From an uncultured Methylococcaceae bacterium (GTDB taxonomy: Bacteria; Pseudomonadota; Gammaproteobacteria; Methylococcales; Methylomonadaceae), in contig CAJAVP010000036.1 of NCBI GenBank assembly GCA_903945375.1, positions 18,659-82,658 on the forward strand: a DNA stretch of 64,000 nt, in the 5' to 3' direction. This document shows, piece after piece, positions 5,018 through 33,538 of the stretch; within the stretch, counting starts at the first letter, position 1, and every line of letters begins with the position of its first letter. Position numbers and translations under genes: made by a program. The notes beneath the pieces are model-generated. The model was not told the DNA's origin. It was given only the letters and a program-made list of their open reading frames with translations, and did no database searches.

Positions 5018-5025
5018 GGATGCTT

Positions 5026-5056
5026 TCATAGGGGTAATCGTAAGATGCCCCTATGA
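5026..5056. terminator. Hairpin between convergent genes
   Basis: TCATAGGGG...CCCCTATGA perfect 9-bp inverted repeat. Confidence 0.55.
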
Positions 5057-5069
5057 TATTAAACAATAA

Positions 5070-5477: not shown

Positions 5478-5688
5478 AATGTTTCTCAATGAATTTAAGG
5501 TTGGATATCAGCAATTGCCTGTCTTCGTTGGTTTTTGAAAAAAACGTGTCATATTTTATAGTTTATTGCAGATTAGAACTGGAAAATTTTAAGGCGCTAG
5601 GGTTGTCGTAGTTTTGAGGTGAATTTTATTAGTCAACTCGCTTGTAAAATGATAATTTACAGCTACCCTTTAAAGCCATTACACCGCT

Positions 5689-7636: not shown

Positions 7637-7651
7637 TGGAATTTAAATACT

Positions 7652-8188: not shown

Positions 8189-8190
8189 TT

Positions 8191-8838: not shown

Positions 8839-8885
8839 CTTGAGCGTTGGCATACATTTTTTACATAGGATAAGAGGACATTAGT

Positions 8886-9248
8886 ATGCGTGCAAATATG
8901 TTGACTTCTGTATTAACAGAACTTAATGGTACATCTGCTGATATTGAAGCATCGGGAATTATTTCGACCGACGGTTTAATGATTGCATCGGTATTACCAG
9001 CCTCTATGGATGAAGATCGAGTCGGGGCGATGAGTGCAGCCATGCTATCGTTAGGTGATCGCACCGCACAAGAGCTGGCAAGAGGAACGTTGGAACAAGT
9101 GTTGATTAAAGGCGCTAACGGCTATGTTTTAATGACCTATGCTGGACCAGAATCTGTTTTGACCGTATTAGCAAAACCGAATGCTAAATTAGGGCTTATT
9201 TTCCTTGATGTGAAACGTGCCGCATCGAGTATTGCTGAATTTTTATAG
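8886..9248 (+). CDS. Roadblock/LC7 domain protein (MglB-like)
   Basis: SGIISTDGLMIAS...DRVGAMSAAMLSLG...ELARGTLEQVLIKGANGYV...LGLIFLD canonical roadblock. Confidence 0.9.
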   Translation: MRANMLTSVLTELNGTSADIEASGIISTDGLMIASVLPASMDEDRVGAMSAAMLSLGDRTAQELARGTLEQVLIKGANGYVLMTYAGPESVLTVLAKPNAKLGLIFLDVKRAASSIAEFL

Positions 9249-9259
9249 TTTTAGCTATT

Positions 9260-9760
9260 TTGTTTGCAGATATCGCTATGATTTATGATATGAAGCCTGA
9301 TGATATAGCAGGCATTTATCAGGCAACCACCCTACATTTATTTTGTGGTATATCGAGACGTGTGTTTTATAGCGATATTGAAACTCCCTTTCCTGATGGT
9401 AAATTAATTGTATCAATTACTGACAGAGAAGGAATTATTACTCATGTCAATAAAGCTTTCGTGGAAATGTCAGGTTATACCGATGAAGAATTATTAGGCT
9501 CTCCTCATTCCATTTTAAGACATCCCGATATGCCAGCCTTTGCATTCAAAGAATTATGGGATACCGTCAGTGTGGGTGGGCGCTGGCAAGGTTATGTAAA
9601 AAATCTTCGTAAGGATGGAGGTTACTACTGGGTTAAAGCGACAGTAATACCTAACATCAGAGATGGCAAAATTGTTAGCTACACCTCGATACGTCGGAAG
9701 CCTTCTCGCGCCAAAGTAGAGGAGTGCATTGAGATTTATCGGAGGTTGTCTGCTGCATAA
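9260..9760 (+). CDS. Stand-alone Aer-type (FAD-binding) PAS domain protein; start may be 9278 or 9290
   Basis: VNKAFVEMSGY...PHSILRHPDMP...LWDT...WQGYVKNLRKDGGYYWV closely parallels the E. coli Aer PAS; no TM, HAMP or MCP domain. Confidence 0.85.
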   Translation: MFADIAMIYDMKPDDIAGIYQATTLHLFCGISRRVFYSDIETPFPDGKLIVSITDREGIITHVNKAFVEMSGYTDEELLGSPHSILRHPDMPAFAFKELWDTVSVGGRWQGYVKNLRKDGGYYWVKATVIPNIRDGKIVSYTSIRRKPSRAKVEECIEIYRRLSAA

Positions 9761-10034
9761 TGTATTGATATTGTGGATACGCCTTATCTAGCTAAGGTTT
9801 TTTATAAAACACATGACTATTTTTTCCATATCTAATCGATTATAACGAGCGGTAACCCACTTTAATTTTTCTGTTGTCGATTTGTTTGAATCTTATTTTA
9901 TCGAAACCAGGGGAATATAAAAAACAATCGCAATAAATTAACGTAATCGTTCAGCCACGCACGCTGATCTCTGTTGCACGAGCTGTCAACGACACTAAGC
10001 GCTTTCAAAAATAACTATAAAAGGCAAGGATACC

Positions 10035-10781
10035 GTGTTATACCAATTTGCAGTCAGTCCAGATTTTTCGCCAAATTTTTTACCCGGATGGTATGTTTTC
10101 AATACCTGGTTACAAAAACAAACTAAGCAAAATTTTCATTTAGAAATTTATCAAAGTTTTCAAGCGCAGCAAGAAGCGCTGTCTCGACAGGAAATAGATC
10201 TCATGTATGCGAGTGCGTTTGATGCGGCTATGTTAGTGCGTGAAAATGGCTTTTTACCCGTAGTTAAAGCGGAAGGCTTTTCAGATGAAGCCGTTATAGT
10301 CGCTAGTGCAGAAAATCCAATTAATGAAATAATCGGTTTGAGCGCGGGAACTAAAGTCGCTATAACAGCAAACCCAGATGTTTATATGATGGGTATGATT
10401 ATGTTAGAGTCAGCGGATTTAAGTGCTAATAACATCCAATTTGTTAATTGTGATACTTATGTGACCGTAGCAAAACAGTTACTGCGGGCGCAAGCCGATG
10501 TAGGCTTCTTTCTTGCTGAAGCCTACGATGCTTTTTCGGATACTATTAAAAGCAAGCTAAAGGTTTTAGTTAGGAGTCAAATCAGCCTTATACATCACTG
10601 CCTAATCGTCGGCTCTAACTTAACCCATCAGCGTGCAGAACTGCAAAAAATACTGCTGGGAATGGCACAAAATGAAAAGGGCAGAAGCGCTTTAAAAAGC
10701 TTGGGTTTTTCATCATGGGTTAGTGTTGATGATGAGAATATGGCATTTATGATTGATGTGATGAATGCGCTGGCATCCTGA
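10035..10781 (+). CDS. PhnD/SsuA/transferrin-like substrate-binding-fold protein lacking a signal peptide
   Basis: IDLMYASAFDAAMLVRENGFLPV, ADVGFF motifs; polar N-terminus. Confidence 0.7.
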   Translation: MLYQFAVSPDFSPNFLPGWYVFNTWLQKQTKQNFHLEIYQSFQAQQEALSRQEIDLMYASAFDAAMLVRENGFLPVVKAEGFSDEAVIVASAENPINEIIGLSAGTKVAITANPDVYMMGMIMLESADLSANNIQFVNCDTYVTVAKQLLRAQADVGFFLAEAYDAFSDTIKSKLKVLVRSQISLIHHCLIVGSNLTHQRAELQKILLGMAQNEKGRSALKSLGFSSWVSVDDENMAFMIDVMNALAS

Positions 10782-10819
10782 CACGTGTTAGTCAACACAT
10801 TGCAAAAATAACTGATTAG

Positions 10820-11383
10820 TTATTGGTCAGATGGCTTTTTATAGCCAGACCACATGGACTTGACTAAATTTTCGCCGTGTAAATAACTTTCCACAATGAC
10901 GCCTATAATATGAAATATAACCAGTGCAACGGTGAAGTTTGCAAAAAGCTCATGCAGATCCTCCCAGAGCGCTTCATTAGCTGAGCCAATGCCTGCTAAG
11001 GGCCCTGCGTTTTGGTCGGCACCATAAACAGCAACGCCGGTCAAGGTAGTTATCAGTAGACTGATTAATAAGAAGACAATCATCATCGCACCAGCGGGAT
11101 TGTGACCTAGGTAGCGCGTGGCTGTTTTGTGTCTAAGGTCTTGTAAATACCTTATGGCTGTTGTAGGTTTACATAGGAAGCTTGAAAAACGAGCATACTT
11201 ACTCCCTAAAAAACCCCACAGTAACCGAAAGCACAGTAAGCCGAATACGCCATAACCCGACCAAACATGAACAGCTAACAACTCATCTTCGGTCACATAG
11301 CAAATCAAAAAACCGATAACCAGTAACCAATGAAAAATTCTTAAAGGTAAATCCCAAACTTTGCATAATTCTTGTGAGTTCAT
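10820..11383 (-). CDS. Cytochrome b (Ni/Fe-hydrogenase cyt b / b561-like) membrane protein
   Basis: VWDLPLRIFHW, HVWSGY, GHNP.G, DLHE and FHIIGV heme-ligand His motifs. Confidence 0.85.
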   Translation of the reverse strand: MNSQELCKVWDLPLRIFHWLLVIGFLICYVTEDELLAVHVWSGYGVFGLLCFRLLWGFLGSKYARFSSFLCKPTTAIRYLQDLRHKTATRYLGHNPAGAMMIVFLLISLLITTLTGVAVYGADQNAGPLAGIGSANEALWEDLHELFANFTVALVIFHIIGVIVESYLHGENLVKSMWSGYKKPSDQ

Positions 11384-11631
11384 ATTAAAAATCCAGATAA
11401 ATTAAAAGTAAAACAGTGGTGAGCGCTCATGATCTGTGCGAATATAAATCTAGCGACTACTAATATACCGTTAAGTCGCTTTACTTAGCTAACATAAAAA
11501 GCCAGTTTTTATGCAGATTCCTCAAATACTTTATCGTAATGCGATACAGATAATAATTAACACGTGTTCAGTGAAGGATGAACCGTAAATAACCCCAAAG
11601 TTTCCCTTAGATTAAACAAAGTAACACGATT

Positions 11632-12138
11632 ATGACATTATTCATTCAATATCTTCAGCTCTGCTGGTTTACTAATAATCCAATTAAGTTATACCCCTCT
11701 CAATCATTCCTTTGGCGATCTGTGCTGTTTTACTTAGGTTCTGGAATTATTGTCGAAGCCAATATCAGCGACCCTGCGGATGCAACGCTTGAGGTGGGGA
11801 TGCGGACATTGGTGGCGCTCTCACTACTCACCGTCTTAGTATTTTTTAACAAAGTTAAGCCCTTGTTCAACCAATTATTGATCGCGGTCTTCATGTGTGA
11901 AAATGTGATGGTGACTTTAGGTATTTTTGTTGAAATTTATGATGCCTTTGCTAGAGGTACACCTTATGAAGATGTGCCGACTTTTCTTGGTGTGGTGTTA
12001 ATTGTTTGGTATATGGCCATTATTAGTTATATTTTTCGTCAAGTATTCCAATTCAGAATGGCTAGTAGTATCAGTTTGGCCATTGGCTATTTTCTTGCCA
12101 CTTATGGTGGACCATTTTTAGTAATGGAAGTGATCTAA
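11632..12138 (+). CDS. Hypothetical multi-TM membrane protein
   Basis: 168-aa ORF with about 5 hydrophobic segments and ATG start. Confidence 0.65.
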   Translation: MTLFIQYLQLCWFTNNPIKLYPSQSFLWRSVLFYLGSGIIVEANISDPADATLEVGMRTLVALSLLTVLVFFNKVKPLFNQLLIAVFMCENVMVTLGIFVEIYDAFARGTPYEDVPTFLGVVLIVWYMAIISYIFRQVFQFRMASSISLAIGYFLATYGGPFLVMEVI

Positions 12139-12154
12139 TCGATTAGGTGTTACG

Positions 12155-12199
12155 CAACATTGCCAAGAAGCTAGGGCTAATGCCTAATTGGCAATGTTG
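12155..12199. terminator. Inverted repeat between convergent genes
   Basis: CAACATTGCCAA ... TTGGCAATGTTG perfect 12-bp stem. Confidence 0.5.
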
Positions 12200-12274
12200 G
12201 CATTAAGTAGTCGTGCAAAAGTTTTTTAACAAAAGTGGGAGGGGTCAAAGCCGCCCCCACAGACTACTTAGCGA

Positions 12275-13444
12275 TCAAGATGCCGTGTCACCTAACCAAT
12301 ATTGTCGATAGTCTTCAAAGGTATAGTGTTTAACTCGTGTTATGCCAGTGGCTCTATGGCAGTAAATATCTGGCAGATTATAGCCATTAAATCGGTTGGC
12401 TTTGACCAGCGTATAAGCACCAACCCGTTCAAAAATGACGCGATCGCCCAATTGTAACGGCGCATCAAAGCGATATTCACCAAAAATATCCCCTGCGAGA
12501 CAACTACTGCCAGCTAAGATAACCGGAAAACGACCTTTGACATGATGACCTATGGCAGAAGCTTGGATTTGATACTCAAATACCTCGGGATGATGATTGA
12601 CTGAGCTGTCGAGTACCGCAATGCTTTTGCCTTCACTGACGAAGCTGTCAATGACGGTGGTGACTAAATAGCCGCAGTGTCCGACTAAACCGTTGCCCGG
12701 TTCAATATAAACGTCTACATCGTAGCGATTTTTTAACTGAGCAACGGCCGCTAATAAAGGGCTGTGATCGGTCATTTCTTTCAATAAATAACCGCCACCT
12801 AGATTGATCCAGTCTAATTTACCGAGTTTATCACCCAAAAATAGGGTTAATTTATCGAGAGTTTGTAGCAAGGGCTGATAGCTATTTGCAGCAAATAAAG
12901 TGTGAATATGCAGACCGCGTACACGATCAATAGCTGAATCTTGCCAGAGCGCATCGATATCCACACCTAGTTTAGAAAATTTTCGACAGGGATTGTAGCG
13001 ATCGTCTTTAATAAACGACAGTTTAGGATTCACGCGTAAACCCACCGCACAGTGAGGCGCCACTTGCTCAGCAAAACGTTGATGTTGTGAGAGTGAGTTG
13101 AAACTGATATGACTACATAAGTGGGTCAGTTCTTTAACTTCATCCGCTCTAATGCCGGGCGTACACAAATGCAAACTGCCTTGACCACCGGCTAAGACTT
13201 CAGCGGCTAAACGCGCTTCAAATAAAGAGCTAACGGAAAAACCATCCACCAGCGGTTTTATCACATCAAGAATCGGATAAAATGGCAGCGATTTAATGGA
13301 ATACAATAACTTGCAAGCATTTTTCGCCCGCAAGACTTGGCAGGCGTTGAGGGTTGTTTGGAGTTCAACCTCATCAAATACAAAGGCGGGCGAGGTTGGA
13401 ATTTGCGTTTTTAGGGCGATACTATCCATTATTTTTCCGATCAA
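12275..13444 (-). CDS. PLP-dependent decarboxylase, Orn/DAP/Arg family, carboxynorspermidine decarboxylase (NspC)-like
   Basis: PAFVFDE, YSIKS (PLP Lys), SSLFEARLA, RVNP, SKLG, NLGGGY, IEPG, SCLAGDIFGEY motifs. Confidence 0.75.
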   Translation of the reverse strand: MIGKIMDSIALKTQIPTSPAFVFDEVELQTTLNACQVLRAKNACKLLYSIKSLPFYPILDVIKPLVDGFSVSSLFEARLAAEVLAGGQGSLHLCTPGIRADEVKELTHLCSHISFNSLSQHQRFAEQVAPHCAVGLRVNPKLSFIKDDRYNPCRKFSKLGVDIDALWQDSAIDRVRGLHIHTLFAANSYQPLLQTLDKLTLFLGDKLGKLDWINLGGGYLLKEMTDHSPLLAAVAQLKNRYDVDVYIEPGNGLVGHCGYLVTTVIDSFVSEGKSIAVLDSSVNHHPEVFEYQIQASAIGHHVKGRFPVILAGSSCLAGDIFGEYRFDAPLQLGDRVIFERVGAYTLVKANRFNGYNLPDIYCHRATGITRVKHYTFEDYRQYWLGDTAS

Positions 13445-14328
13445 AACTCGAATACGGTACGAAAAATAGCATAGTCTCCTGGAATATGATTGTTGACATT
13501 GTATTCATGCAACCATTTCACCGCAAACATGACATCTTTCTGTCCCATTTTAACGGTGTACATGAGCGCAGGGCCTATGCTGTTATATTCGGCCAAGGCG
13601 AGATTAGCGGGAACACCACTGCCCGTATCGGGGGTGACTTGTCGATAATACGAGCCTGCGATACCCAAGCCAAATTGGGGGGTCAGATAATAGCCGCCCA
13701 TAAAATCAAAATGTAATTCGTCACCGGTGCGGTAATGGGTCGCCGAGTTTTCACTGTTCACCATGTAACCCAGCATGACCGATAAATCGAAATTAGTGCC
13801 TTTGGGAAGCCAAGTCAGTCCCAAATTCGTATCGGATGTCCAATAATTACGCCCTGAGTTTAATCCTCGCGTTTTTTCAAATGAGCCGGTTGGTAAGACG
13901 ACCCCTTCAAAAGCCAAAATGGATAGCTCATGCCATTGCCAAGATAAGGCGATGGGCAGCGCATACATATCGCCAGCACCACCACGACTGGCGCGGTTTT
14001 TTGCGCCGCCACTAGAGCTGACCGAATCGGTATACAACACGTTAGGGAAAAATCCCACCCAGTAATTGCCGCCAGCAATTTTTGTTTCTGTTACCCGAAT
14101 CACGCCGGGCAATTCAAACAGCATATTGCTACCGTTGCCATCATCGCCGGAGGTGTTATAGCCCATAAAGCTGCTGACATAATTACCCGGCGCAGGTGCG
14201 ACCGCCATACCGAAATCACCGTAGAAGCCAGGGGTGTAACTGCTGCTGCCATTTTCAGCTGCAAGGCAGGATAACGGAGCGATTAAAAGGAGGGTAGTGC
14301 TGAGTTGGTAAGGTTTGTTAATGATCAT
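13441..14328 (-). CDS. SphA / MetA-pathway-type outer-membrane beta-barrel transporter
   Basis: Signal peptide; AENGSSSYTPG, GDMY, PTGSF, N.GRNYW, Y.TGDELH motifs; terminal aromatic residue (FEF). Confidence 0.75.
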   Translation of the reverse strand: MIINKPYQLSTTLLLIAPLSCLAAENGSSSYTPGFYGDFGMAVAPAPGNYVSSFMGYNTSGDDGNGSNMLFELPGVIRVTETKIAGGNYWVGFFPNVLYTDSVSSSGGAKNRASRGGAGDMYALPIALSWQWHELSILAFEGVVLPTGSFEKTRGLNSGRNYWTSDTNLGLTWLPKGTNFDLSVMLGYMVNSENSATHYRTGDELHFDFMGGYYLTPQFGLGIAGSYYRQVTPDTGSGVPANLALAEYNSIGPALMYTVKMGQKDVMFAVKWLHEYNVNNHIPGDYAIFRTVFEF

Positions 14329-14368
14329 GGTTGGTTCTTGTTAAATTAAAAAAAATAGGGTACTGACA

Positions 14369-17300
14369 TCAATGATGTCTCGTTGGTTGAGAATAATCGA
14401 GGTTTACTATTTGGGGGCTATTTGCATCAAAGGCTTCGACATCGTTTGTTATTTGTCGACTCAGTGGATAGCTTGACTTAATGCCTTCGAGAGAATTGAG
14501 CGCAGCGGCGAAATCATAGTGTTCGATTTGTTTGTCTAACAGGAAGATCTGATTATTGTCAGAATATTTTGTTAACGCAGGTTTTAGTGTCTGCCAAAGC
14601 TCGTAACTTTGGGCATCGTCTTCAGATAAAAGTTGTTCTAGTTTTTGCAAGTCATCAAAAATTTGCTCAGGGCTATTTATAATGACAGGCAAAGGCTTAT
14701 CTTGTTCGCCTAGGTGGGTGATGAGTTCACAAGTCCGGCTGAGTTCTGTACCTAGCAGTGAAATATTGCTTTCAATTTCAGCGGTTTCTGTTTCATGACG
14801 AAATTGCGTTTCTAAATTACGGGCAATTTTTTTTATTTTTTCAGTTCCTAAGGTTGCCGCGAGGCTTTTTAATGTATGGACATGTAATTGTGCTTCGTGA
14901 AAATTTTTATTAGCCAATAAAATGGTTAATGTTTCAGCATCTTGCTGATGATTCTTGACAAACTGATTCAGCATTTTGAAATACAGTGAACGATTGCCAT
15001 TAAAATAATGGAGTCCAATTTGCAAATCGAGTAACGATGATTGTGCGGAAGTGGACTCGTCGCCAATCGATGAAGGGAAGAGCGAGGCAGGAGACGTTAC
15101 CTTATCCATTGGTGTCGTCAGCCATTGCGTTAAAATAGCGTGTAAAACCTGAGGTTCGACAGGTTTCGTTAAATAATCATTCATGCCCGCATCGAGGCAT
15201 CGCTGTCTATCTTCTGTGAAGGCATTTGCTGTCATGGCGATAATGGGAATGGACTTGCCGAGTTCTAGCGTTCTAATGATGCGAGTGGCCTCCAGACCAT
15301 CCATGACGGGCATTTGCATATCCATCAGAATTAAATCGTAACTTTTTGCGGTTATTTTTTCCACGGCAGTTAAGCCATTAGCCGCAACCTCGACGTGTAA
15401 GCCCAAGCTTTCTAATAAATCTTTGGCAACTTCTTGGTTGATGACATTATCTTCGACAAGTAGTAGGTGTGCGCCAAGACGAATATCTTTGTCAGCGGGA
15501 ATCGGGTTAATGGTGTTCTTACCAATGCCTTTGTGTAAGGGTAATGTAAACCAAAATGTACTACCTTTACCAATCTGGCTGCGAACCCCCAATTCTCCGC
15601 CCATGAGTTCGGCTAAGCGTTTACTAATGGTTAAGCCCAGTCCTGTGCCCCCATATTTTCTGGATGTTGAATTTTGCGCTTGCTCAAAAGCAATAAATAT
15701 CCGAGCTTGTTGCTGCTCCGTTAGACCAATGCCGGTATCTTCCACCTCAACTTGAAGCCTGATGGTATTTTCAGTTTCTTGCAAAATAAGCGCTCTGAGT
15801 ATGATTTCCCCGCGTTCGGTGAATTTAATGGCGTTGCTAAGATAGTTGAGCATGATTTGATCCACGCGCAATGAGTCCCCCAGCAATACTAAATGACTGA
15901 GTTTAGAGTCGACTTCAACAGAAAATAGCAAGCCTTTTTCATCAATACGTTCTTTGAGCATACTACAGACATGGTTGATACTGGCAGCCATATTAAATTC
16001 AGTTTCTTCAATATTCATTCGATTCGCTTCAATTTTTGATAAATCGAGGATGTCATTAATAATACCTTGAAGATGTTCCGCCGATTCAGTGACTTTACTG
16101 AGTCGTTGCAATTGACGCGCATCGGTTATTTCCCGCTGAATCAAATACGTTAAACCGAGAATGGCATTCATGGGCGTACGAATTTCGTGGCTCATATTGG
16201 CTAAGAACGTGCTTTTGGCTTGACTTGCGGCTTCTGCTGATTCTTTTGCTTGGCGTAATTGAACTTCAATTTGTTTGCGTAGCGTAATATCGGTATGAAT
16301 ACCAACAGCTCGACGGGCATTACCGTATTCATCATGATCAACAACCTTGCCTTTACTTAAAATCCACCGATAATTACCGTCTTTGCCAAGCATTCTGAAT
16401 TCAATTTCAAATCCACCGTCTGTTTGTAAAAGCTTTTCAACCAATTCCAAGGCTTTGCAGTTATCATCCGGGTGTAATAAATCGAGCCAAGTGGGAGAAA
16501 CATAGTATTGGCTTTCCCATCCTAGTGTTAGAGGCTCTTCAGAAATTGATGAATTAGTGATATTAATGCGGCTTGATGCAAAATCGTCCGCTTCATAACC
16601 TAGCATGGTAAAGTAGGATTTGTTGTAGCAGGCTAAGTTATTGACAATATCCCAATCCCAAATACCATCACTACTGGCATCGGCGGCATAAACAAAACGT
16701 TGTTCGCTAGAGACTAATTTACGGTTGAGTAACTCTAGGGCGCTGGTACGGTCAACGACCAACTCTTCTAGGTGTTGCTGATAGGCTTCAAGTTCTGACT
16801 GTACCCGCTTCTTTTCCGTGATATCTTCTTTAATCGCCAAATAGTGCGTAATATTGCCGTCTGCTTGGCGGACGGGGGAAATTTGCACAAACTCGATCAC
16901 TTCCTCGCCATTTTTACGTTGATTAATTAATTCCCCGCTCCATTTGATACCTTGGTTAAGATTCGACCACATCGCGTCAAAAACTTGGGAATTGGTTTTT
17001 CCTGATTTAATGAAGCCTGGATTTTTACCCAAAACTTCCTCGCGTTTATAACCACTGATATTGAGAAAATGCTCGTTGACGTATTCAATTTGTGCATCCG
17101 TGTTGCAAATAACAATGCTATTAGGACTTTGCTCGACGGCTAACCAGAGTTTACGTAAATCATCTTCTGATTTTTTGCGCTCAGTAATATCACGGTCAAT
17201 GCCTTGAAAACCTTGTAATTGACCCTCGTTATCTAAAATAGCGGTACTGTTAGATTCCAGATAAAGAAATTCTCCCCGTGAATTTTGCCAGCGCAGTACG

Positions 17301-23834: not shown

Positions 23835-24704
23835 ATGAATGACAAACTTATACACTATTGGCGTTTAGCTCGATTCGACCGCCCGATTGGCATTTTGATT
23901 TTACTTTGGCCATCGCTTTGGGCGCTCTGGGTCGCTGGAAATGGCAAACCGGATGCCTTAGTGCTAACAGTAATTTGCCTAGGCGTTATTGTTATGCGAG
24001 CGGCTGGCTGTGTGATTAATGACTACGCCGACCGCGATTTTGATCCGCATGTCGAACGTACCAAACAACGCCCTATTGCGGCCGGAAAAGTCAGTCCCAA
24101 AGAAGCCTTGTTAGTGTTTGCGATCTTATGCCTAATCGCTTTTGGACTTGTTTTGTTGCTCAATACATTAACGATTCTTTTATCATTCATTGGTGCTTTT
24201 CTTGCCGCAAGCTATCCTTTTATGAAACGCTATACGCATTTACCCCAAGCCTATTTAGGTATCGCTTTTGGCTGGGCTGTGCCTATGTCATTTGCTGCAC
24301 AAAGCAATCATATACCGGCTGTGGCTTGGGTTATGTATTTAGCGGTGATACTGTGGTCACTGATTTACGACACGATGTACGCCATGGTCGATAAGGCCGA
24401 CGACTTGAAAATCGGTGTAAAATCTACCGCTATTTTATTTGGTGATTACGATCGCCACATTATTGCCGCGCTACAAGTGCTTATGCTGAGTTTATTGGTA
24501 CTTGTAGGACAAATGCAGCAGTTAACTTTGCCTTATTATCTGGGCTTATTGGTCGCGGGTGGCTTATCTGTTTATCAACAAACGCTCATTTTTCACCGCA
24601 ATACCAATCAGTGTTTTAAGGCTTTTTTAAATAGCAATTGGTTGGGTATCGCTGTTTTTGTTGGTTTAGTCATCAGTTATGTGACTATTCAGTCTTCTCC
24701 TTAA
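23835..24704 (+). CDS. ubiA: 4-hydroxybenzoate polyprenyltransferase
   Basis: [45 protein letters not shown]. Confidence 0.96.
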
Positions 24705-24793
24705 AGCCACATTCTATAGGGCATATTAGCAATAGCTAATACGCCGGATGTGGTTACCTATGCGGCGCAATACGACTATCTGCGGATTGCGCC

Positions 24794-26053
24794 CTACCTA
24801 ATAACAGAAAACTCCATCAACAAACCCACAATAACCGACGCAAGTAAAGAACCTGCAACTCGATAACCAAGTTTTAACCCGCCCAGAACAATAGCATAAA
24901 GGCTTTTAATGAATGAATTGACAGTAACCGCGATAATAATGGCGTTACTTGCCACCTGCATATCGATGGAATTTTGACTCATACGCGCCATGCTCAACGT
25001 TAATGGATCGACATCCGCCAGACCTGAAACGGTGGCAAGTGCGTACGTGCCCAAATCGCCAAAATAGGTTTTAAGCCAATTAGAGAGCAATAATATGAGC
25101 AATAAAAACAAACCAAACTTTATCGCCATACCTAATTGAAATGGGTTTTCCAAACTCACTTCTTCACCCGTTCTGAATTCCCTAGAGTTTTGCCACAGCA
25201 AAAAAGCCGCTATATACGTGAAAAAGCCCATGATGGCTAAAGACGGTAACAGTAAACGACACAGTGCGGCGTTCAATATCCAAGTTAATAACAGCGTACG
25301 CACAAACAATGTGGCACAAGCCGTTAAAATACCTGCTGCTAATGCATTTTCGCTGCCTAAATGCCGTTTTGCCAAACGTGATAAATTTAATGTGACTGCC
25401 GTTGAGGACACTAGCCCGCCAAATACCCCTGTCAAAACAGGCCCGTGACGATCCCCGACAATTCTGACAGCAAAATAGCCTAGATAGGAAATACTGGCAA
25501 TCAACACCACCATCCACCAAATCAGATACGGATTAAACGCCTCCCAAGGCCCATAACCTTGATCCGGTAAGACGGGCAACATGACGACTGAAATCAGTAA
25601 TAACTGTAAGGTCGCATTTAATTCATGCTGCTCCAGCTTTTTCATCCAGCCATGTAATACGGGTTTAAAATCCAGAAGTGACGTAATCACCACAGCAGTG
25701 GCGCACGACAACGTGATGTAACCGCTAGTAATTAAAGCACCTAAGGTAAACGTCAATAAGGCAGCAACCATACCAGTAATACTGAAATCTTCAAATTTTT
25801 CAAAGCTTTTATGGTAAGCCACTAGCAATATCAGCGTAAGCCCTAAAAATGAAAAACCTAATAATGAGGGGTGAAATTGCTTTGCCAAAATACCGCAAAG
25901 AGCACCTAATAAACTGATTAAGCCATAAGTTCGCAAGCCAGCAACACGTAAACCCTCATCCAAATTGCGAGCACGCCAACCTCGCTCAAGTCCAATCAAC
26001 AGACCGGTTGCCAGCGCGATACCTAATAGCTTGAAACTTTCCAATTCCGTCAT
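24794..26053 (-). CDS. MgtC/SapB family protein with DUF4010 domain
   Basis: GLLIGLERG...AGLRTY; GGLVSSTAVT; GLADVD motifs. Confidence 0.88.
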   Translation of the reverse strand: MTELESFKLLGIALATGLLIGLERGWRARNLDEGLRVAGLRTYGLISLLGALCGILAKQFHPSLLGFSFLGLTLILLVAYHKSFEKFEDFSITGMVAALLTFTLGALITSGYITLSCATAVVITSLLDFKPVLHGWMKKLEQHELNATLQLLLISVVMLPVLPDQGYGPWEAFNPYLIWWMVVLIASISYLGYFAVRIVGDRHGPVLTGVFGGLVSSTAVTLNLSRLAKRHLGSENALAAGILTACATLFVRTLLLTWILNAALCRLLLPSLAIMGFFTYIAAFLLWQNSREFRTGEEVSLENPFQLGMAIKFGLFLLLILLLSNWLKTYFGDLGTYALATVSGLADVDPLTLSMARMSQNSIDMQVASNAIIIAVTVNSFIKSLYAIVLGGLKLGYRVAGSLLASVIVGLLMEFSVIR

Positions 26054-26140
26054 AATTCCACCTATCTGATCTAACAAAGACAACATGTACCAACAATTTT
26101 TGTAACTCTTCAACCCCGCCTCAGTTACGTCATCTAATTT

Positions 26141-26216
26141 GTCATTCCGGCAGGGATTCGCTATCGCGCTCTAGCGAGTGTCGAAGCCGTCAGACCGCGT
26201 TAGCGAATCCAGAACA
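26141..26216 (+). repeat. REP-like element GTCATTCCGGCAGGGATT...GAATCCAG with an expanded internal hairpin
   Basis: GGATTCGCTATCGCG (26154-26168) and CGCGTTAGCGAATCC (26196-26210) are inverted repeats, 14/15 match. Confidence 0.6.
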
Positions 26217-26524
26217 CAGTGAAGTGTTCGCCGCTTACAGCACTGTAACATTGCCTGTAATTGCGCTGCGCTATCAGCCAACAAAACAAAATTGTCAACA
26301 TAGCGTACATAATGGTGGCACTTTAGAGTATGTTTAACAAATTGGTCAAGTTCGTTCAGATAAGTAGTGTTGATGTGCTGGTTTATAGCACAAGCAAATT
26401 GTCAGCACTCGCGGTGGTAACAATTTTTCCCTTGCGCGGTAACACAAAAAAGCCCCGCTCCAATGTTGTTTTTTTTTTGCATCCTCATAGATATGAAAAG
26501 CGGCGATTGCACCATAAAGCTTAG

Positions 26525-26653
26525 ACTCGATGTTCAAGTTTTTTAGTTTGGCTGAGGCGAACCCAGATAATCCAAAGTGTTTTCGTCAATAATTGTAAGT
26601 TTTGATTTAGTGAGGTTCTCTAAAATCAAGAATTAAAAACTTGAACATCGAGT
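26525..26653. mobile_element. MITE-like element (129 bp) with perfect 19-bp terminal inverted repeats
   Basis: ACTCGATGTTCAAGTTTTT ... AAAAACTTGAACATCGAGT; no ORF; no clear target-site duplication. Confidence 0.6.
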
Positions 26654-27209
26654 TAATTGAGTTTATATGCGCTTGCCCTGCTATCGCCTAGATTTTTGAG
26701 TCGACAAGAAATACCGTGTACCCCGCATAAAACCCCAGTAATTCTAATTACATAAAACATAATTTAATCCAAATGTTAGATGTGAGTTATCTCGTTTCTT
26801 TGTGATATTTAATCGAGTCCTCTTTTTCATCTGTTCAGCAAAGCCTTATAAAACAATGGGCTGGTATTATTACTCATTTAGCTTTTCGATAATTATGCCG
26901 TTATTGCCCTAGAACACAGTTAGATCATCAAATTCTAAAATATGAAATATATCTATTTGAATTTATTATGTTATTTCGTAATAAGGCTTGCAGGTACAGC
27001 TAGTTGTTTGCATTTGAGCAATAAAATATTACTATTTGTTGAACAATCTCCTTTGACGGGTGCAGGAGCTATCTAAAGGTTTTTGGCCTGCAATGACTTA
27101 ATCATCACTCAGGTAGGGGTGTGCGGTGAAGAGGGCTGTGATGAGCTACGCTGATAATATGGATAAAGTAGGCTAGCCACTAACACGGGACCGCGTGAAT
27201 AGGCATGAC

Positions 27210-27257
27210 GTATTGACTTGCAGGCAGAGCCTGATCTCCTCATTTACGTTGGTAGCC
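27210..27257 (+). repeat. Second copy of the 48-bp intergenic element
   Basis: GTATTGACTTGCAGGCAGAG-N6-CTCCTCATTTRCGTTGSTAGCC, 42/48 identical to 23569-23616. Confidence 0.75.
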
Positions 27258-27323
27258 ATAAAGTATAACTATAATTATAAAGCTGGAATTTGGTCAGATT
27301 AAATTAATTTTGGGGTAAATAAC

Positions 27324-29018
27324 ATGCAGTATTCAAAAGGATTTTTTTTTCAATTTGTGCGTTTGGCAGGGCCGTTTTGGTATTCTGAGAATAAGTCTGC
27401 GATTCGTTTGCAAACCTTTGCTCTGATTGCCTTGACCATTATGCAAATGGTTATTGCGGTGGAAATTACCGAATGGAGTGCGGCTTTGTTTAACGCCTTA
27501 GAGCAGCATTCTATGGCGGGTTTATTTAGGCAGGTCGCTCTGCTGGTGTTGATTTTTGCAGCCAGTATGGCGGTGACTGTGACGCATTTAAATGTTAAGC
27601 GTAGCTTACAGGTAGGGTGGCGTAATTGGTTAACTGAGCGTGTGATTGGGCAATGGATGGATAAGTCGCATCACTACTTGGTGACACATATTCAGACGGC
27701 TCATCATGATAATCCCGATGGGCGTATTGCTGAGGATATTCGTATTGCCACGGAGGAAGCTATCGCGTTGTGCCATACGCTGTTTTATAGCTTTTTGGTC
27801 TTGGTTAGCTTTACAACTATTTTGTGGTCGCTTTCCGGTGAAGTGATGCTGGATTTGGGATTATTCCGTTTGAATATACATGGTTATTTGGTGTGGATAG
27901 CTATTATTTATGCGGTAACAGCCTCTTTTTTAGGCTGGCGAATTGGTAAGCCTTTAATTCATGCGACCGATGTCAAGCAAACCGCTGAAGCAAACTTTCG
28001 CTTTGATTTAGCAACGGCTCGTGAACACTCTTTGGCCATCGCGCTTATTCATAGTGAAGCTGATGAGCAAAAGCGATTTTTTGGTTTGTTTCGGGGAATT
28101 ATCGAAGCGTTTAATCGACAAACTCAAGCGATGTCACACATCATGTTGTTTACGTCAGGTTACTCGGTGTTGTCTATGGCGTTCCCTGTCTTGGTTTCAG
28201 CACCGCGTTATATCATCGGCAGTATTAGTCTAGGGGCTTTAATGCAGTCAGCACAGGCATTTCAGCAGACAACCTCGGCTCTGTCTTGGCCAGTTGATAA
28301 TATGTCTGGGGTGGCGCAATGGCGAGCTTCGGTGGAGCGGGTATTAAGCTTAGCGAAAGCCTTGGATGATTTAGAGATTGAGTTGACTCGAATGGATCCG
28401 CATCGCATTGTCGTAGAAAAAAATGATACTTCGGTCTTGAGTTTTGAGGATTTATGTATTGCTCGCCTTGATAATGTGGTTTGTGTGTCCGCTTTAAACG
28501 CAGAGATTAAAGCGGGTGATCGTGTGTTGGTGTCGGGTAATGCGTATACCGGGTCTAAACTATTTAAAGCGATTACTGGGTTGTGGCCCTGGGGTTCGGG
28601 GCGAATAGAGTTGCCGGATAATGAGCTGGTATTTTTTATGCCGCCTAGGCCGTATTTACCTTCAGGAACCTTACGCTCGGCGATTTGTTATCCCGCAGGT
28701 CATGAGGCGGTGAGTCAGTCGGCACTGGAGCAGGCAATGCTCATGACAGGTTTGAGTGAGCTAATAAGTCAATTAGATCAGATTGATTTTTGGGACAAGG
28801 CGCTCCCTCGGGAACAACAGCAACGCTTAGGTATGGTTAGATTATTATTACAGCGTCCTAAGTGGGTGTTAATCCAAGAATCGTTTGATTCGTTGAGTCC
28901 CGAAGGTGAAATTGAGATGTACCGTTTGATTTGTCAAGAATTACCCGACTCTGCCTTACTGACGGTGAGCAATCAGCCCATTGCGGAAGCTTTTCATCCT
29001 CGCAAAATTATCGTTTAA
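27324..29018 (+). CDS. YddA/BacA(Rv1819c)-like ABC transporter, fused TMD plus degenerate NBD
   Basis: DNPDGRIAEDI, EANFRF, ALMQSAQAFQQ TMD motifs; NBD motifs altered (see findings). Confidence 0.85.
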   Translation: MQYSKGFFFQFVRLAGPFWYSENKSAIRLQTFALIALTIMQMVIAVEITEWSAALFNALEQHSMAGLFRQVALLVLIFAASMAVTVTHLNVKRSLQVGWRNWLTERVIGQWMDKSHHYLVTHIQTAHHDNPDGRIAEDIRIATEEAIALCHTLFYSFLVLVSFTTILWSLSGEVMLDLGLFRLNIHGYLVWIAIIYAVTASFLGWRIGKPLIHATDVKQTAEANFRFDLATAREHSLAIALIHSEADEQKRFFGLFRGIIEAFNRQTQAMSHIMLFTSGYSVLSMAFPVLVSAPRYIIGSISLGALMQSAQAFQQTTSALSWPVDNMSGVAQWRASVERVLSLAKALDDLEIELTRMDPHRIVVEKNDTSVLSFEDLCIARLDNVVCVSALNAEIKAGDRVLVSGNAYTGSKLFKAITGLWPWGSGRIELPDNELVFFMPPRPYLPSGTLRSAICYPAGHEAVSQSALEQAMLMTGLSELISQLDQIDFWDKALPREQQQRLGMVRLLLQRPKWVLIQESFDSLSPEGEIEMYRLICQELPDSALLTVSNQPIAEAFHPRKIIV

Positions 29019-29043
29019 ATTTACAAACAACTAAGGAAAACTG

Positions 29044-30165
29044 ATGAAATTTCCAGTCAACAATAAATTCAGTAAAAAAATACGTGGTGTTAATTTGGGC
29101 AGTTGGTTAGTCATTGAAAAATGGATGGTGCCCAGTCTTTTTGAGGGCATGAGTGCAACAGATGAAACGACCTTTTGTGTTGAATTGGGCGCAGATGCTG
29201 AGCGGGTATTAAAAAACCACTGGGATACCTTTATCACCAAAGAGGATTTTGTATGGCTTGCTCAATGCGGTATTAACGCAGTGCGTATTCCGGTTGGGCA
29301 TTGGCTATTTGGTGCTGATTATCCCTATCACCCGAGTTATGGCGATAATCGATACCCCTTTGCCCAAGGAGGGCTCGAGGTGTTGGATCGCGCGTTTGTT
29401 TGGGCTGAGGAATTGGGCTTACATGTGGTGTTGGATTTACATGCGGCACCGGGCTGTCAAAATGGCTTTGATAATGGCGGCATTAAAGATGTTTGTGAAT
29501 GGCATACTAAACAGGACTATTTGGATCATTCGCTGTCCGTTTTGGAGCGGCTTGCTCAGCGTTACCAAGGAAGTCCTGCGCTTCATGCGATTGAAGTTTT
29601 AAATGAACCGCGTTGGGATGTCCCGACGGACTTACTGAAAACTTACACGACGGCGGCATATCACGTTATTCGTAAGCATTGTCAACCTGAAAATGTTGCA
29701 GTGGTTTTTCACGATGGTTTTCGTTCTCACACCGAGTACAGTGGTTTTATGGCTGAACCAGAGTTTAAAAATGTTATCTTTGATATTCATCGTTATCAAT
29801 GTTTTGCCCGTGAAGAAATTGATCTGGATATTTATGGGCATATTCAAAAAACGGTTGTCGATTGGAAAAACGAAGCCAACGAGATTAACCACGATCGACA
29901 CGGCGGCGCTTATGTTGGAGAGTGGAGTTTAGGTATCAATTTAAAAGTAGTGTCATTATGGGCGGAAGGGCCTTTTAATCATGCGCTTGAAGACATGGAT
30001 GAGTTTCAAACTGACGTGGGTTACCGCGTTTATGGCGCGGCACAGCTAGCGAGTTTTGAAAAATATGCGGGATGGTTCTTTTGGAGTTACAAAACTGAAA
30101 CGACACCGGATTGGTGTTTTCGGGCTTGTGTTGAAAATGGTTGGTTGCCAAGCCGTTACTTTTAA
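29044..30165 (+). CDS. Glycoside hydrolase family 5 (exo-beta-glucanase-like), cytoplasmic
   Basis: RGVNLGSWLVIEKWM, RIPVGHW, LDLHAAPG.QNG, NEP acid/base, VGEWS nucleophile, GWFFWSYK; no signal peptide. Confidence 0.9.
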   Translation: MKFPVNNKFSKKIRGVNLGSWLVIEKWMVPSLFEGMSATDETTFCVELGADAERVLKNHWDTFITKEDFVWLAQCGINAVRIPVGHWLFGADYPYHPSYGDNRYPFAQGGLEVLDRAFVWAEELGLHVVLDLHAAPGCQNGFDNGGIKDVCEWHTKQDYLDHSLSVLERLAQRYQGSPALHAIEVLNEPRWDVPTDLLKTYTTAAYHVIRKHCQPENVAVVFHDGFRSHTEYSGFMAEPEFKNVIFDIHRYQCFAREEIDLDIYGHIQKTVVDWKNEANEINHDRHGGAYVGEWSLGINLKVVSLWAEGPFNHALEDMDEFQTDVGYRVYGAAQLASFEKYAGWFFWSYKTETTPDWCFRACVENGWLPSRYF

Positions 30166-30342
30166 AGTGTATTTAATAAATTCCTATCACGGTAACTGGT
30201 ATAGATACGCGCGTTGGGTTAGAATTACGCAGTTTATTTGTGATTATTTTATTGTGTCATTAAACATACGTGCGTGTATCTTGGTTACGATAAAACGAAA
30301 AAACGCATAAAAGTCTATAACAACTATCTAAGGGGCTGCTCC

Positions 30343-31863
30343 GTGAACAAAACAAAGCAACTATTCGCAGGTCTGATCTTAATGGCTTTGGCCGAGGGGA
30401 CAGCGCATGCGGACTATACGCTCAACTTAATGAAGGGGGTCACAAAAGTCAGTAATGACATTTATGACCTACATATGCTGATTTTATGGATCTGTGTAAT
30501 TATCGGTGTTGGTGTGTTTGGCACTATGTTTTATTCGATTTACCATCATCGTAAATCAAAAGGACATCAAGCTGCACAATTCCATGAAAATACAACTGTA
30601 GAAATCATTTGGACAATTATTCCCACTCTGATCCTGATTGGTATGGCAATTCCTGCGACTAAAACCTTATTGGAATTAGAGGATGTTCAAGATGCCGAAA
30701 TGTCGATTAAAGTGACGGGTTGGCAGTGGAAATGGGAATATGAATATTTAGACAACGGTATTCATTTCTTCAGTAGTCTTGATGAAGCCAGCAATAAAGC
30801 GCGTCAGGTTGGTTCGGGTATCGATCCGCGTACTGTTCCTCATTATTTGCTGAACGTCGACAAGCCGTTGGTTATCCCAACCAAGAAAAAAATCCGTTTT
30901 TTGTTTACGGCAGCCGATGTACTTCACTCTTGGTGGATTCCTGATTTAGGTTGGAAAAAGGATGCAATCCCAGGTTTTATTAATGAAGCATGGACTTCCG
31001 TTGACAATCCAGGAACTTATCGCGGTCAATGTACGGAGTTATGTGGCAAAGATCATGGCTTCATGCCGATTGTCGTGATCGCAATGGAGCAGCCCGAATA
31101 TGATGCGTGGGTTAAAAAGACACAAGAAGACGCTAAAAAAGGTGCAGATTTAAGCGATCAAAGCCATGACGAGTTGGTCTCTAAAGGTGCGGCTGTGTAC
31201 GCGAAAAACTGCTCGACTTGTCATTTGCCTGACGGCAAAGGTGTACCTGGAGCATTTCCTGCCATTACGGGTAGTGCGCTGGTCAAAGGTGATATCAATG
31301 CACAAGTTAGTCTTGTTGTGAACGGTAAAGGTGCGATGCCAGCGTTTGGTAAAATGTTAAAAGCGGATGAGTTAGCGCAAGTTATTACTTATACACGCAA
31401 TGCCTTAGGCAATGCTGTCGGTGATCATGTTCAACCGAAAGCTATCCAAGAACTTTTGCCTAAGCCATCGAGTGCGGCTGCGCCAAAAGCGACACCCGCA
31501 ACCGTCGAAAAGATTGAGCCAATGGCCGATATGAGCAAAGATGACTTATTGGTTTTAGGCAAGACCATTTATAACAGTAACTGTTCATCATGTCATCAGG
31601 CAGAAGGACAAGGCAATCCGCCGATGTTCCCTGCATTAAAAGGCAGTGCTGTCGTCTTAGGCGATATCAATGCTCAAATTAATTTAATGTTAAACGGCAA
31701 AGGTATGATGCCAGGTTTTGGACATTCCTTAAAAGCCAATGAATTTGCTGCTGTGGTTAGCTATACGCGCAATGGTTTAGGCAATGCGGTTAATGATGTC
31801 GTTCAGCCATCTGTTATACAACAACTGCAAGCCGCTTTGCCGCCAGAACAGAATGATGATTAA
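30343..31863 (+). CDS. coxB: Cytochrome c oxidase subunit II with two C-terminal cytochrome c domains
   Basis: CuA motifs DVLHSW and CTELCGKDHGFMP; heme c motifs CSTCH and CSSCH; GTG start at 30343. Confidence 0.95.
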   Translation: MNKTKQLFAGLILMALAEGTAHADYTLNLMKGVTKVSNDIYDLHMLILWICVIIGVGVFGTMFYSIYHHRKSKGHQAAQFHENTTVEIIWTIIPTLILIGMAIPATKTLLELEDVQDAEMSIKVTGWQWKWEYEYLDNGIHFFSSLDEASNKARQVGSGIDPRTVPHYLLNVDKPLVIPTKKKIRFLFTAADVLHSWWIPDLGWKKDAIPGFINEAWTSVDNPGTYRGQCTELCGKDHGFMPIVVIAMEQPEYDAWVKKTQEDAKKGADLSDQSHDELVSKGAAVYAKNCSTCHLPDGKGVPGAFPAITGSALVKGDINAQVSLVVNGKGAMPAFGKMLKADELAQVITYTRNALGNAVGDHVQPKAIQELLPKPSSAAAPKATPATVEKIEPMADMSKDDLLVLGKTIYNSNCSSCHQAEGQGNPPMFPALKGSAVVLGDINAQINLMLNGKGMMPGFGHSLKANEFAAVVSYTRNGLGNAVNDVVQPSVIQQLQAALPPEQNDD

Positions 31864-31915: not shown

Positions 31916-33538
31916 ATGTCCGCTGTTATAGCTGAACATGACGATCATCACGAACATGATGATCATGCTCACGGCCCTGAGAAGGGTATTTTAAGATGGA
32001 TCATCACGACGAATCACAAAGATATTGGTACGTTGTATTTGTTTTTTGCCTTAGCGATGTTCTTTGTCGGCGGGATAATGGCGATGATTATCCGTGCTGA
32101 GTTGTTTGAACCCGGTATGCAATTTGTGCAACCGCAGTTTTTCAATTCAATGACGACAATGCACGCATTGGTGATGGTGTTTGGTGCGGTTATGCCGGCA
32201 TTTGTTGGCTTAGCTAACTGGATGATTCCCATGATGATTGGTGCGCCTGATATGGCGTTGCCGCGCATGAACAACATGAGCTTTTGGGTGTTGGTAGCTG
32301 GCGTGTTAATGTTGGCAAGTACCTTATTCATGGAAGGTGGTGCGCCAGCGGGTGGTTGGACACTCTATCCTCCCTTAGTATTGCAAACCGGTAAGGCCTT
32401 GCCATTTGCTATTTTCTCTGTGCATTTGCTGGGTATTTCTTCCATTATGGGAGCGATTAACATTATTGCGACTATTTTCAATATGCGTGCTCCAGGCATG
32501 ACATTGATGAAAATGCCATTATTTGTTTGGACTTGGTTGATTACCGCATTCTTGCTAATTGCCGTCATGCCGGTGTTTGCAGGTGCAGTAACGATGTTGC
32601 TGACAGATAGATTTTTTGGTACTAGCTTTTTTGATGCAGCAGGCGGCGGTGATCCTGTATTGTATCAACATATTTTCTGGTTCTTCGGTCATCCTGAAGT
32701 TTATATCATGATTTTGCCCACCTTTGGTGTGGCTTCGACCATTATCCCCGTGTTTGCTCGTAAACCATTATTTGGTTATAGCTCAATGGTTTATGCAACA
32801 GCCTCGATTGCGTTTTTATCGTTTATCGTTTGGGCGCATCATATGTTCACTGTTGGAATGCCTGTGGCAGGTGAGTTGTACTTCATGTATGCCACCATGT
32901 TAATCGCAATTCCAACTGGCGTAAAAGTATTCAACTGGACTGCCACCATGTGGAAGGGTGCGATGACCTTTGAAACGCCAATGTTGTTTTCCATTGCCTT
33001 TGTGGTTTTGTTTACGATTGGCGGATTTACGGGATTGATGATGTCAATTGCCCCCTCTGATTTCCAATACCATGACACGTATTTTATTGTTGCACATTTC
33101 CATTACACCTTAGTGCCTGCGTCAGTCTTTATTTTGATGGCGGCGGGTTACTATTGGCTGCCTAAATGGACGGGACATATGTATAACGAAAAAATCGGTC
33201 AGCTCCATTTTTGGTTATCTACGGTGTCAGTGAATATTCTGTTCTTTCCTCAGCATTTCTTAGGATTGGCGGGCATGCCGCGCCGAATTCCTGATTATGC
33301 GGTGCAATTTGCTGATTGGAATATGATTTCCAGTATTGGGGGATTTATCTTTGGTGCCAGTCAGTTGCTGTTTTTATATATCGTTATTGACACCATTCGT
33401 GGTGGTACAGGCGAGAAAGTATCGGATGAGGTCTGGGAAGATGCGCATAAACATGGCTTGGAATGGACGTTACCCTCTCCGCCGCCGTACCATAGCTTCA
33501 CGACCCCACCAACCATTATTCCAACCGAGCATATTTAG
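31916..33538 (+). CDS. coxA: Cytochrome c oxidase subunit I (A-type)
   Basis: [26 protein letters not shown]. Confidence 0.97.

Follow-up and report, generated by a model that had tools for sequence, protein, structure and literature searches.

An ABC half-transporter of the YddA/Rv1819c branch with a conserved but degenerate ATPase domain and glucosidase gene partners

The locus and its degenerate ATPase motifs

The window analyzed here, a stretch of 64,000 nucleotides from an uncultured Methylococcaceae bacterium (assembly GCA_903945375.1, contig CAJAVP010000036.1, positions 18,659 to 82,658), carries a gene for a half-transporter of the ATP-binding cassette (ABC) type whose nucleotide-binding domain (NBD) is conserved and predicted to be folded, and lacks the consensus motifs of an ATPase. 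It is followed, in the same orientation, by a gene for a homologue of exo-β-1,3-glucanases. The transporter gene and its parts are listed below by their coordinates in the window, with the extents of the domains taken from Pfam and from an AlphaFold2 (AF2) model, whose per-residue confidence is given as the predicted local distance difference test (pLDDT).

27324..29018, +: YddA/Rv1819c-like type IV ABC half-transporter gene with a predicted dead NBD; intact open reading frame (ORF) of 564 amino acids (aa)
27324..28388, +: transmembrane domain (TMD), aa 1–355, six long helices (AF2 secondary structure, Pfam)
27711..27743, +: NPDGRIAEDIR motif, aa 130–140, intracellular loop 1; a family hallmark at the TMD–NBD interface
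27987..28004, +: EANFRF motif, aa 222–227; the EAA-like motif of the YddA/ABCD family
28401..29015, +: NBD-like domain, aa 360–564 (205 aa); folded (AF2 pLDDT ~75–93, β/α pattern of an ABC NBD), conserved, without consensus ATPase motifs
28536..28565, +: Walker A remnant GNAYTGSKLF, aa 405–414; P-loop one residue short, no GK[S/T]
28641..28649, +: Q-loop position, PPR, aa 440–442; Gln replaced by Pro (P441)
28803..28826, +: signature remnant LPREQQQR, aa 494–501; canonical form LSGGEQQR
28863..28883, +: Walker B remnant WVLIQES (LIQES, aa 516–520); Asp replaced by Gln (Q518), the following Glu kept (E519)
28968..28979, +: H-loop position, SNQP, aa 549–552; His replaced by Asn (N550)

A Pfam scan of the 564-aa protein identified ABC_membrane_2 (PF06472) at aa 24–294 (E = 2.9e-30), as well as SbmA_BacA (PF05992; E = 6e-17), and no ABC_tran domain (PF00005). 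When the whole genome was scanned with PF00005, 37 ordinary ABC ATPase domains were recognized, none of them at this gene. The closest relative with a solved structure is Rv1819c of Mycobacterium tuberculosis (PDB 6tqe; HMMER E = 1.9e-55 over aa 66–561), followed by ABCD1, ABCD3, and ABCD4, and the same ranking was returned by Foldseek (6tqe at the top, with a template modeling score of 0.80) for the AF2 model, which was calculated for a monomer from a 60-sequence alignment. The mean pLDDT of this model is 82, and its C-terminal 200 residues form a confident α/β domain of the ABC NBD type. The protein thus shows the features by which the YddA/Rv1819c/ABCD family (PF06472) is recognized, namely the NPDxRIxxD and E..FR loop motifs and the fold of a TMD–NBD half-transporter.

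An initial annotation, made from the sequence alone, had described the ORF as intact and the TMD as well conserved, and both statements hold. Little or no variation is seen in the family motifs NPDGRIAEDIR and EANFRF, and E222 and R226 of the latter motif are found in 20 of 20 members of the clade described below. The two interface loops have low pLDDT in the monomeric model. Since the interface motifs are invariant, the NBD-like domain is probably still mechanically coupled to the TMD.

In the HMMER alignment to Rv1819c, GNAYTGS-KLF lies opposite GRSGAGKTTLL and LPREQQQR opposite LSPGEQQR, with P441, Q518, and N550 facing the Q-loop Gln, the Walker B Asp, and the H-loop His, respectively. A basic residue (Lys/Arg; K412 in the window protein) stands at the P-loop, one position out of register. 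Judged by these replacements, the former ATP site cannot be a normal ATPase site. It had been claimed initially that every catalytic motif was lost; all five strings quoted in support of that claim are present and face the true motifs of Rv1819c, but E519 after Walker B and the SLx D-loop are retained, making the claim a slight overstatement.

An ancient clade under purifying selection

Intact motifs in close homologues, which the initial annotation had named as the sign of recent decay, were found in none of them. The motifs are degenerate in the same way in all of the 120 closest protein clusters (64–99% identity; Methylobacter and Methylovulum, among others) and in 78 genomic orthologues from Methylobacter, Methylovulum, Methylomonas, Methylomicrobium, Crenothrix, and Methylicorpusculum; altogether, about 200 Methylomonadaceae orthologues with 60–99% identity share them. 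The degenerate motifs are themselves conserved, following the patterns G[DN]xxTG[AS][KR]LFKA, FFMPPRPYLP, L[TPS]REQQQRLG, WILLQEAFD, and [TS]NQP. The ratio of nonsynonymous to synonymous substitution rates (dN/dS, Nei–Gojobori method) amounts to 0.070 in the TMD and 0.112 in the NBD-like part, as calculated from 296 pairs of closer family members with unsaturated dS, synonymous sites being saturated in the pairs that include the window gene. This degree of constraint speaks against the vestigial NBD that had initially been suggested. Orthologues are present in 92 of the 151 genomes of the family and in 21 of its 35 genera. A recently decayed pseudogene, or an artefact of annotation or sequencing, would be suggested by the missing motifs and by nothing further; with the ORF intact, the same motifs in so many genomes, dN/dS of 0.07–0.11, and the clade-wide state ancient, as described next, the chance that this is the explanation is negligible.

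The extent of the degenerate state was followed by an exhaustive HMMER search of 1.84 billion representatives of 50% clusters, in which the motifs of the matches were tabulated. The nearest full-length representatives (35–55% identity) all lack GK[ST] and have a one-residue deletion in the P-loop in common; the first canonical proteins are met at ~38% identity. In a tree based on the TMD only, 22 degenerate representatives form one group with the Methylomonadaceae proteins, with a support value (SH-like approximate likelihood ratio test, SH-aLRT) of 82, or of 98 with the canonical sister included. The P-loop deletion and the absence of GK[ST] recur in 188 of 194 further clade members. In 86% of the clade the P-loop contains an Asp, and the Walker B Asp, found in 99% of the canonical relatives, is present in 5% of the clade. 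The shifted Lys/Arg at the P-loop is not conserved outside Methylomonadaceae. By these alignments and by the TMD tree, the dead-site state is ancient and clade-wide, marks one deep clade, and is not a recent decay.

The clade is also marked by residues in the TMD. The polar residues Q41, H88, R93, an inserted H128, Y155, R218, Q266, Q311, and Q314 are conserved in the clade and missing in canonical relatives, and G133 within NPDGRIAEDIR is clade-specific, the canonical relatives having Gln at this position in 89% of cases. The window protein itself carries Q41, H88, R93, H128, G133, Q266, Q311, Q314, and P323, in addition to the P-loop deletion and the loss of the Walker B Asp. Such a set of clade-specific polar residues points to a changed cavity or specificity.

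Named members of the clade come from Chromatiaceae, Azospirillum, Ferrovibrio, Magnetospirillum, Pararhodospirillum, Falsiroseomonas/Roseomonas, and Thauera sinica, and the TMD tree also places Rhodospirillales in it. The clade is rare overall: of 401 evenly sampled Pseudomonadota genomes, 77 have canonical relatives, and only one besides the window genome has a clade member. All members are annotated as 'ABC transporter ATP-binding protein/permease', which amounts to a systematic annotation error. No description of the P-loop-less clade was found in a search of full-text literature whose coverage leaves out most subscription journals, and papers on the evolution of SbmA, BacA, BclA, and YddA make no mention of such a clade (PMC8442886, PMC13316013, PMC12003926).

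In three other Methylomonadaceae genomes, extra copies that belong to the clade are only 358–371 aa long and end just after transmembrane helix 6. Their positions are:

L214:3989-5065, +: NBD-less copy
L215:3971-5086, +: NBD-less copy
L216:3944-5053, −: NBD-less copy

No remnant of an NBD was found near any of the three copies, and the genes that surround them, such as those for a P-type ATPase and a catalase, are unrelated. The copies at L214 and L215 belong to different genera; they share 80% identity with one another and ~62% with the TMD of the window protein, and both keep the loop motifs. The proportions of nonsynonymous (pN) and synonymous (pS) differences between them are 0.125 and 0.77, respectively, the latter being saturated. 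In this lineage the TMD is maintained under selection without an NBD and is presumably functional. An ATP-independent mechanism predicts that the NBD can be lost while the TMD is retained, and the NBD-less copies match this prediction.

We can tentatively speculate that the clade is a living intermediate on the path from an ATP-driven ABC transporter to a secondary transporter or facilitator. The catalytic site would have died first, once and deep in the clade; the NBD would have been kept only as a mechanical clasp and finally dropped in some lineages, such as those of the 358–371-aa copies. This is a possible course of events rather than a probable one. If true, a lineage of sugar importers would have retraced the path put forward for the origin of the SbmA-type transporters (SLiPTs), which a 2026 paper derives from a YddA-like ABC protein by loss of the NBD (PMC13316013).

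The constraint on the NBD-like domain could also be read in another way, with the domain binding a nucleotide or a small ligand without hydrolysis and acting as a regulatory gate, similar to the degenerate site of CFTR and SUR or to a metabolite sensor, so that transport would be ligand-gated. Besides the dN/dS of 0.11, this reading could draw on the near invariance of FFMPPRPYLP, REQQQRLG, WILLQEAFD, and TG[AS][KR]LFKA within the family, on the Glu kept after Walker B, and on the invariant motifs at the TMD–NBD interface. The P-loop, however, is shortened, with no Lys or Ser/Thr in register and with an Asp in most of the clade; the shifted Lys/Arg is a feature of Methylomonadaceae only; and copies without any NBD persist under selection. 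On balance, a ligand gate seems unlikely.

Glucosidase genes and a possible substrate

The gene that follows the transporter is described by a single row:

29044..30165, +: GH5 exo-β-1,3-glucanase homologue, 373 aa, predicted cytoplasmic; 25 nt 3' of the transporter gene and co-oriented with it; Pfam Cellulase/GH5 (PF00150)

This gene of glycoside hydrolase (GH) family 5 has an AAGGA ribosome-binding site before its ATG. Its product matches exo-β-1,3-glucanases in the PDB with E values of 1e-57 to 1e-46 (8z2w, 1eqp, and 2pb1 at 1e-57 to 1e-51), keeps the NEP acid/base and GEW nucleophile motifs, and by sequence is similar to the characterized Exg/Xog1 enzymes. Homology to the characterized enzymes starts at residue 10–12, and the protein is therefore predicted to have no signal peptide.

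The association of the two genes extends well beyond the window. In Methylomonadaceae, GH5 lies directly 3' of the transporter gene in 57 of 80 loci, and of the 151 family genomes, 80 have the transporter and GH5, 12 the transporter alone, 2 GH5 alone, and 57 neither, counted without regard to kinship. Elsewhere in the clade the place of GH5 is often taken by GH1. A GH1 gene is found directly 5' of the clade member in Azospirillum thermophilum and next to it in Magnetospirillum XM-1 and in genome G254; several GH1 genes and a glycosyltransferase surround it in A. argentinense; and in Ferrovibrio, GH1, glucokinase, and the transporter form an operon with a 4-nt overlap. In 80 metagenome loci, an adjacent GH1 was found in 22 and an adjacent GH5 in 14 (36 of 80 with either), accompanied by glucokinase in two. 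As a control, 39 loci of canonical YddA-like proteins were inspected within ±6 kb, and GH1, GH5, or glucokinase was present in none of them (Fisher p values of 3e-15 and 2e-8).

The surroundings of two individual loci may be added. The clade member on plasmid p2 of Azospirillum argentinense (L084, locus 1730-16686) has as neighbors three GH1 β-glucosidases, an α-galactosidase, and a glycosyltransferase, together with one DUF6212 protein, one protein of the radical SAM/SPASM type, and a MucR regulator; the native substrate may be hinted at by this larger island of glycan-related genes. At another locus (L217, G538:C4:48483-57376, ~3210-4909, −), directly 5' of an intact GH5 gene, an apparent frameshift splits the transporter orthologue into overlapping ORFs of 304 and 295 aa; the frameshift is either an error of sequencing or the mark of a recent pseudogene.

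Two candidates for the source of a β-glucan substrate, osmoregulated periplasmic glucan (MdoG) and a GH16 laminarinase, were rejected, both being absent from the genome. Outside the window (contig G000:C82), the same genome encodes an 868-aa fusion of GH17 with a family 2 glycosyltransferase (GT2) (L212:7146-9752, +), divergent from a canonical ABC exporter with PF00664 and PF00005 domains (L212:5038-6828, −). We take the GH17+GT2 arrangement to be the architecture of NdvB-type synthases of cyclic or periplasmic β-1,3-glucan. Homologues of this synthase are present in 114 of the 151 family genomes and, again ignoring kinship, in 90 of the 92 that have the transporter versus 24 of the 59 that do not. 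This distribution suggests that the transporter may serve to recycle the cell's own β-1,3-glucan.

Because all of the partners are cytoplasmic catabolic enzymes, import of β-gluco-oligosaccharides is the most economical reading of these neighborhoods. The opposite direction has been considered as well, with the protein acting as an exporter or flippase that releases or positions, for example, a β-glucan or glycolipid, and with the neighboring glucosidase trimming or proofreading the product. Most type IV ABC proteins do export, the genome carries an NdvB-type synthase, and mycobacterial BacA is reported to work in both directions (PMC10960864). Nevertheless, the partners, namely a GH5 that lacks a signal peptide, GH1, and an operon-encoded glucokinase, are cytoplasmic enzymes of catabolism, the NdvB-like gene already adjoins an ABC exporter of its own, and uphill export without ATP would be hard to explain, which renders an exporter improbable.

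Partner subunit, energy coupling, and functional reading

Type IV exporters that are heterodimers and in which one site is degenerate, such as TM287/288 and TmrAB, are well known, and in them the defects are divided between the chains in such a way that one site stays consensus. The initial annotation had raised the possibility that the window protein is the inactive half of a heterodimer of this kind, with the ATPase activity provided by the other half, and some genomes of the family do carry two copies, sometimes in tandem. In the window protein, however, Walker A and the signature are dead in one and the same chain, and both composite sites of any dimer would therefore be defective. Nor was an active paralogue found: the genome, which is 100% complete, has no second YddA/ABCD-like gene, the sole other match being a weak one to the NBD of an unrelated PF00664 exporter. 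The tandem copies are both degenerate, leaving only a slim chance for an arrangement with one active half.

Such tandem copies were observed directly 5' of the GH5 gene in two genomes of one genus, at L218 (G491:C1:348500-355000) and L219 (G452:C9:71500-77800). They are 53–57% identical to the window protein, and may pair as a heterodimer in which both halves are dead.

A proton-driven mechanism, the other branch of the initial proposal, did not find support either. The glutamate ladder of SbmA consists of E193, E203, E269, E276, E287, and E378, and YddA has no equivalents of E203 and E287 (PMC13316013), a statement on the E. coli protein that is reproduced by our alignment. The window protein and its clade have two of the six, E137 (equivalent to E193 of SbmA) and E222 (equivalent to E276), exactly as ordinary E. 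coli YddA does, while the other four positions in the window protein are occupied by I147, T215, R233, and Q332. An SbmA-type proton ladder was thus rejected.

Since no energy source has been identified and the NBD is conserved without catalysis, the protein might be thought not to be a transporter at all, serving instead as a membrane sensor or scaffold that reports the status of periplasmic glucan or anchors the glucosidase. Its conserved motifs are nevertheless those of a cavity-forming TMD with many clade-specific polar residues, an operon that combines glucosidase with glucokinase is typical of an uptake locus, and no signaling output domain was detected by Pfam. We consider such a role very improbable.

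Comparison with characterized systems places the protein more precisely. Rv1819c (the mycobacterial BacA; 6tqe, 6tqf) and BclA of Bradyrhizobium are likewise half-transporters built from a TMD and an NBD, with a TMD of the PF06472/PF05992 type and with the NPDxRIxxD and E..FR motifs. In both of them, Walker A and B, the Q-loop, the signature, and the H-loop match the consensus; of these motifs, the window protein keeps only the Glu after Walker B. The genomic context of Rv1819c and BclA is one of cobalamin or peptides rather than of glucosidases. The two are described as ATP-driven importers of hydrophilic compounds that need ATP hydrolysis (PMC10960864, PMC12003926). E. coli YddA and the canonical proteobacterial YddA-like proteins belong to the same family and agree with the window protein in length and in the glutamate set; unlike the window clade, they have intact motifs and, in the 39 sampled loci, none of the sugar-related neighbors, and their identity is 25–36%. 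By its TMD, its predicted fold, and its descent, the window protein is a member of the YddA/Rv1819c branch that fails to show the catalytic motifs of an ABC ATPase.

The TMD of SbmA and BacA, the NBD-less, proton-driven peptide importers of the SLiPT type, is homologous to that of the window protein, which is presumably independent of ATP as they are. Unlike them, the window protein has an NBD-like domain that is predicted to be folded and is under selection, keeps its interface motifs, has only part of the glutamate ladder, and is encoded beside genes for the degradation of sugars, not peptides. By these differences it is not an SbmA/SLiPT protein. ExsE of S. meliloti (pSymB, L085:5854-7674), encoded in a polysaccharide (exo/exs) region, is a YddA-like protein with a partly degenerate NBD that keeps GKT (GDPRAGKT) and the Asp-Glu of Walker B (VVIDEA); the Gln of its Q-loop, the LSGGQ signature, and the His of its H-loop are gone. 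Membership of the window protein in the ExsE class was rejected, as it has no motifs of the GDPRAGKT/VVIDEA type and ExsE falls into a separate P0154/P0233 group in the TMD tree. Compared at the level of motifs and tree, ExsE represents a second YddA-like lineage in which the NBD degenerated independently. A precedent for transport without ATP by a type IV ABC TMD is LmrA-MD, which is LmrA without its NBD, described as a proton-coupled transporter in work cited in PMC8442886. LmrA-MD, though, was obtained artificially by truncating an unrelated PF00664 exporter, whereas the state of the window clade is natural, ancient, and clade-wide.

With moderate confidence, we regard the window protein as an importer of β-gluco-oligosaccharides with an ABC fold that works independently of ATP hydrolysis together with the cytoplasmic GH5, its NBD being kept as a structural or gating module. 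For the substrate, the direction of transport, the source of energy, and the role of the NBD, the following scheme can be proposed. The protein would form a homodimer with the type IV ABC fold of the YddA/Rv1819c/ABCD branch, which would not hydrolyze ATP and probably would not bind it in the normal manner, and whose TMD would still enclose the large hydrophilic cavity typical of this branch. The NBD-like domain would serve as a structural, dimerizing, or gating module, coupled to the TMD via the conserved loop motifs. Transporter and GH5 would make up a two-gene unit of uptake and breakdown, in which β-linked gluco-oligosaccharides pass from the periplasm to the cytoplasm and are then cut to glucose. 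In this organism the substrate would likely be β-1,3 oligomers, which could plausibly stem from the NdvB-type glucan that the cell itself makes in its periplasm. Transport might be driven by the membrane potential or by a proton gradient acting through residues other than those of the SbmA ladder; alternatively, a downhill flux might be sustained by hydrolysis and phosphorylation in the cytoplasm.

Several observations weigh against this scheme. The strong selection on the NBD leaves room for the binding of a ligand or nucleotide, as do E519 and the Lys/Arg by the shortened P-loop that is conserved in Methylomonadaceae. Between about a quarter and a half of the clade loci have no adjacent glucosidase, Thauera sinica and Falsiroseomonas being examples, and 12 of the 92 family genomes with the transporter have no GH5. 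The co-occurrence counts ignore phylogeny, the substrate is proposed from gene neighborhood, and the SbmA ladder is missing as a path of energy coupling. As to the initial idea of an ATP-independent transporter with a non-catalytic NBD, intermediate to SbmA/BacA, the conserved degenerate motifs, the antiquity of the state, and the NBD-less copies inside the clade agree with it, while its vestigial NBD and its proton drive had to be given up.

ABC transporters are defined by ATP hydrolysis, and SbmA and BacA demonstrate that an ABC-type fold can run on a proton gradient after the loss of the NBD; to our knowledge, no intermediate between a YddA-like ancestor and SbmA/BacA has been described. 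The clade, which is large and ancient, with a dead but selected NBD and with NBD-less derivatives arising inside it, provides natural material on the transition from ABC to secondary transport, and the glucosidase linkage gives it a clear physiological handle. It makes testable what an NBD does without the use of ATP, how the TMD is energized, and whether bacteria take up or recycle β-glucan oligomers through this fold.

The remaining surroundings of the transporter gene in the window can be described briefly. The 1.2-kb spacer on its 5' side (26114-27323) contains no ORF longer than 64 aa, and neither blastn nor tblastx matched it to any of 80 related loci; riboswitches and other RNA elements were sought over 24000-31000 in an Rfam scan with permissive settings, which returned no match. 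Beyond the spacer, a divergent gene (24794-26113, −) encodes a 439-aa membrane protein with MgtC and DUF4010 domains, found beside the transporter in none of the 80 related loci. On the other side, the pair of transporter and GH5 genes is followed by genes for subunit II of cytochrome c oxidase (30274-31863, +), apparently with two C-terminal CxxCH cytochrome c modules, and subunit I (31916-33538, +), a neighborhood shared by only 2–3 of the 80 related loci.

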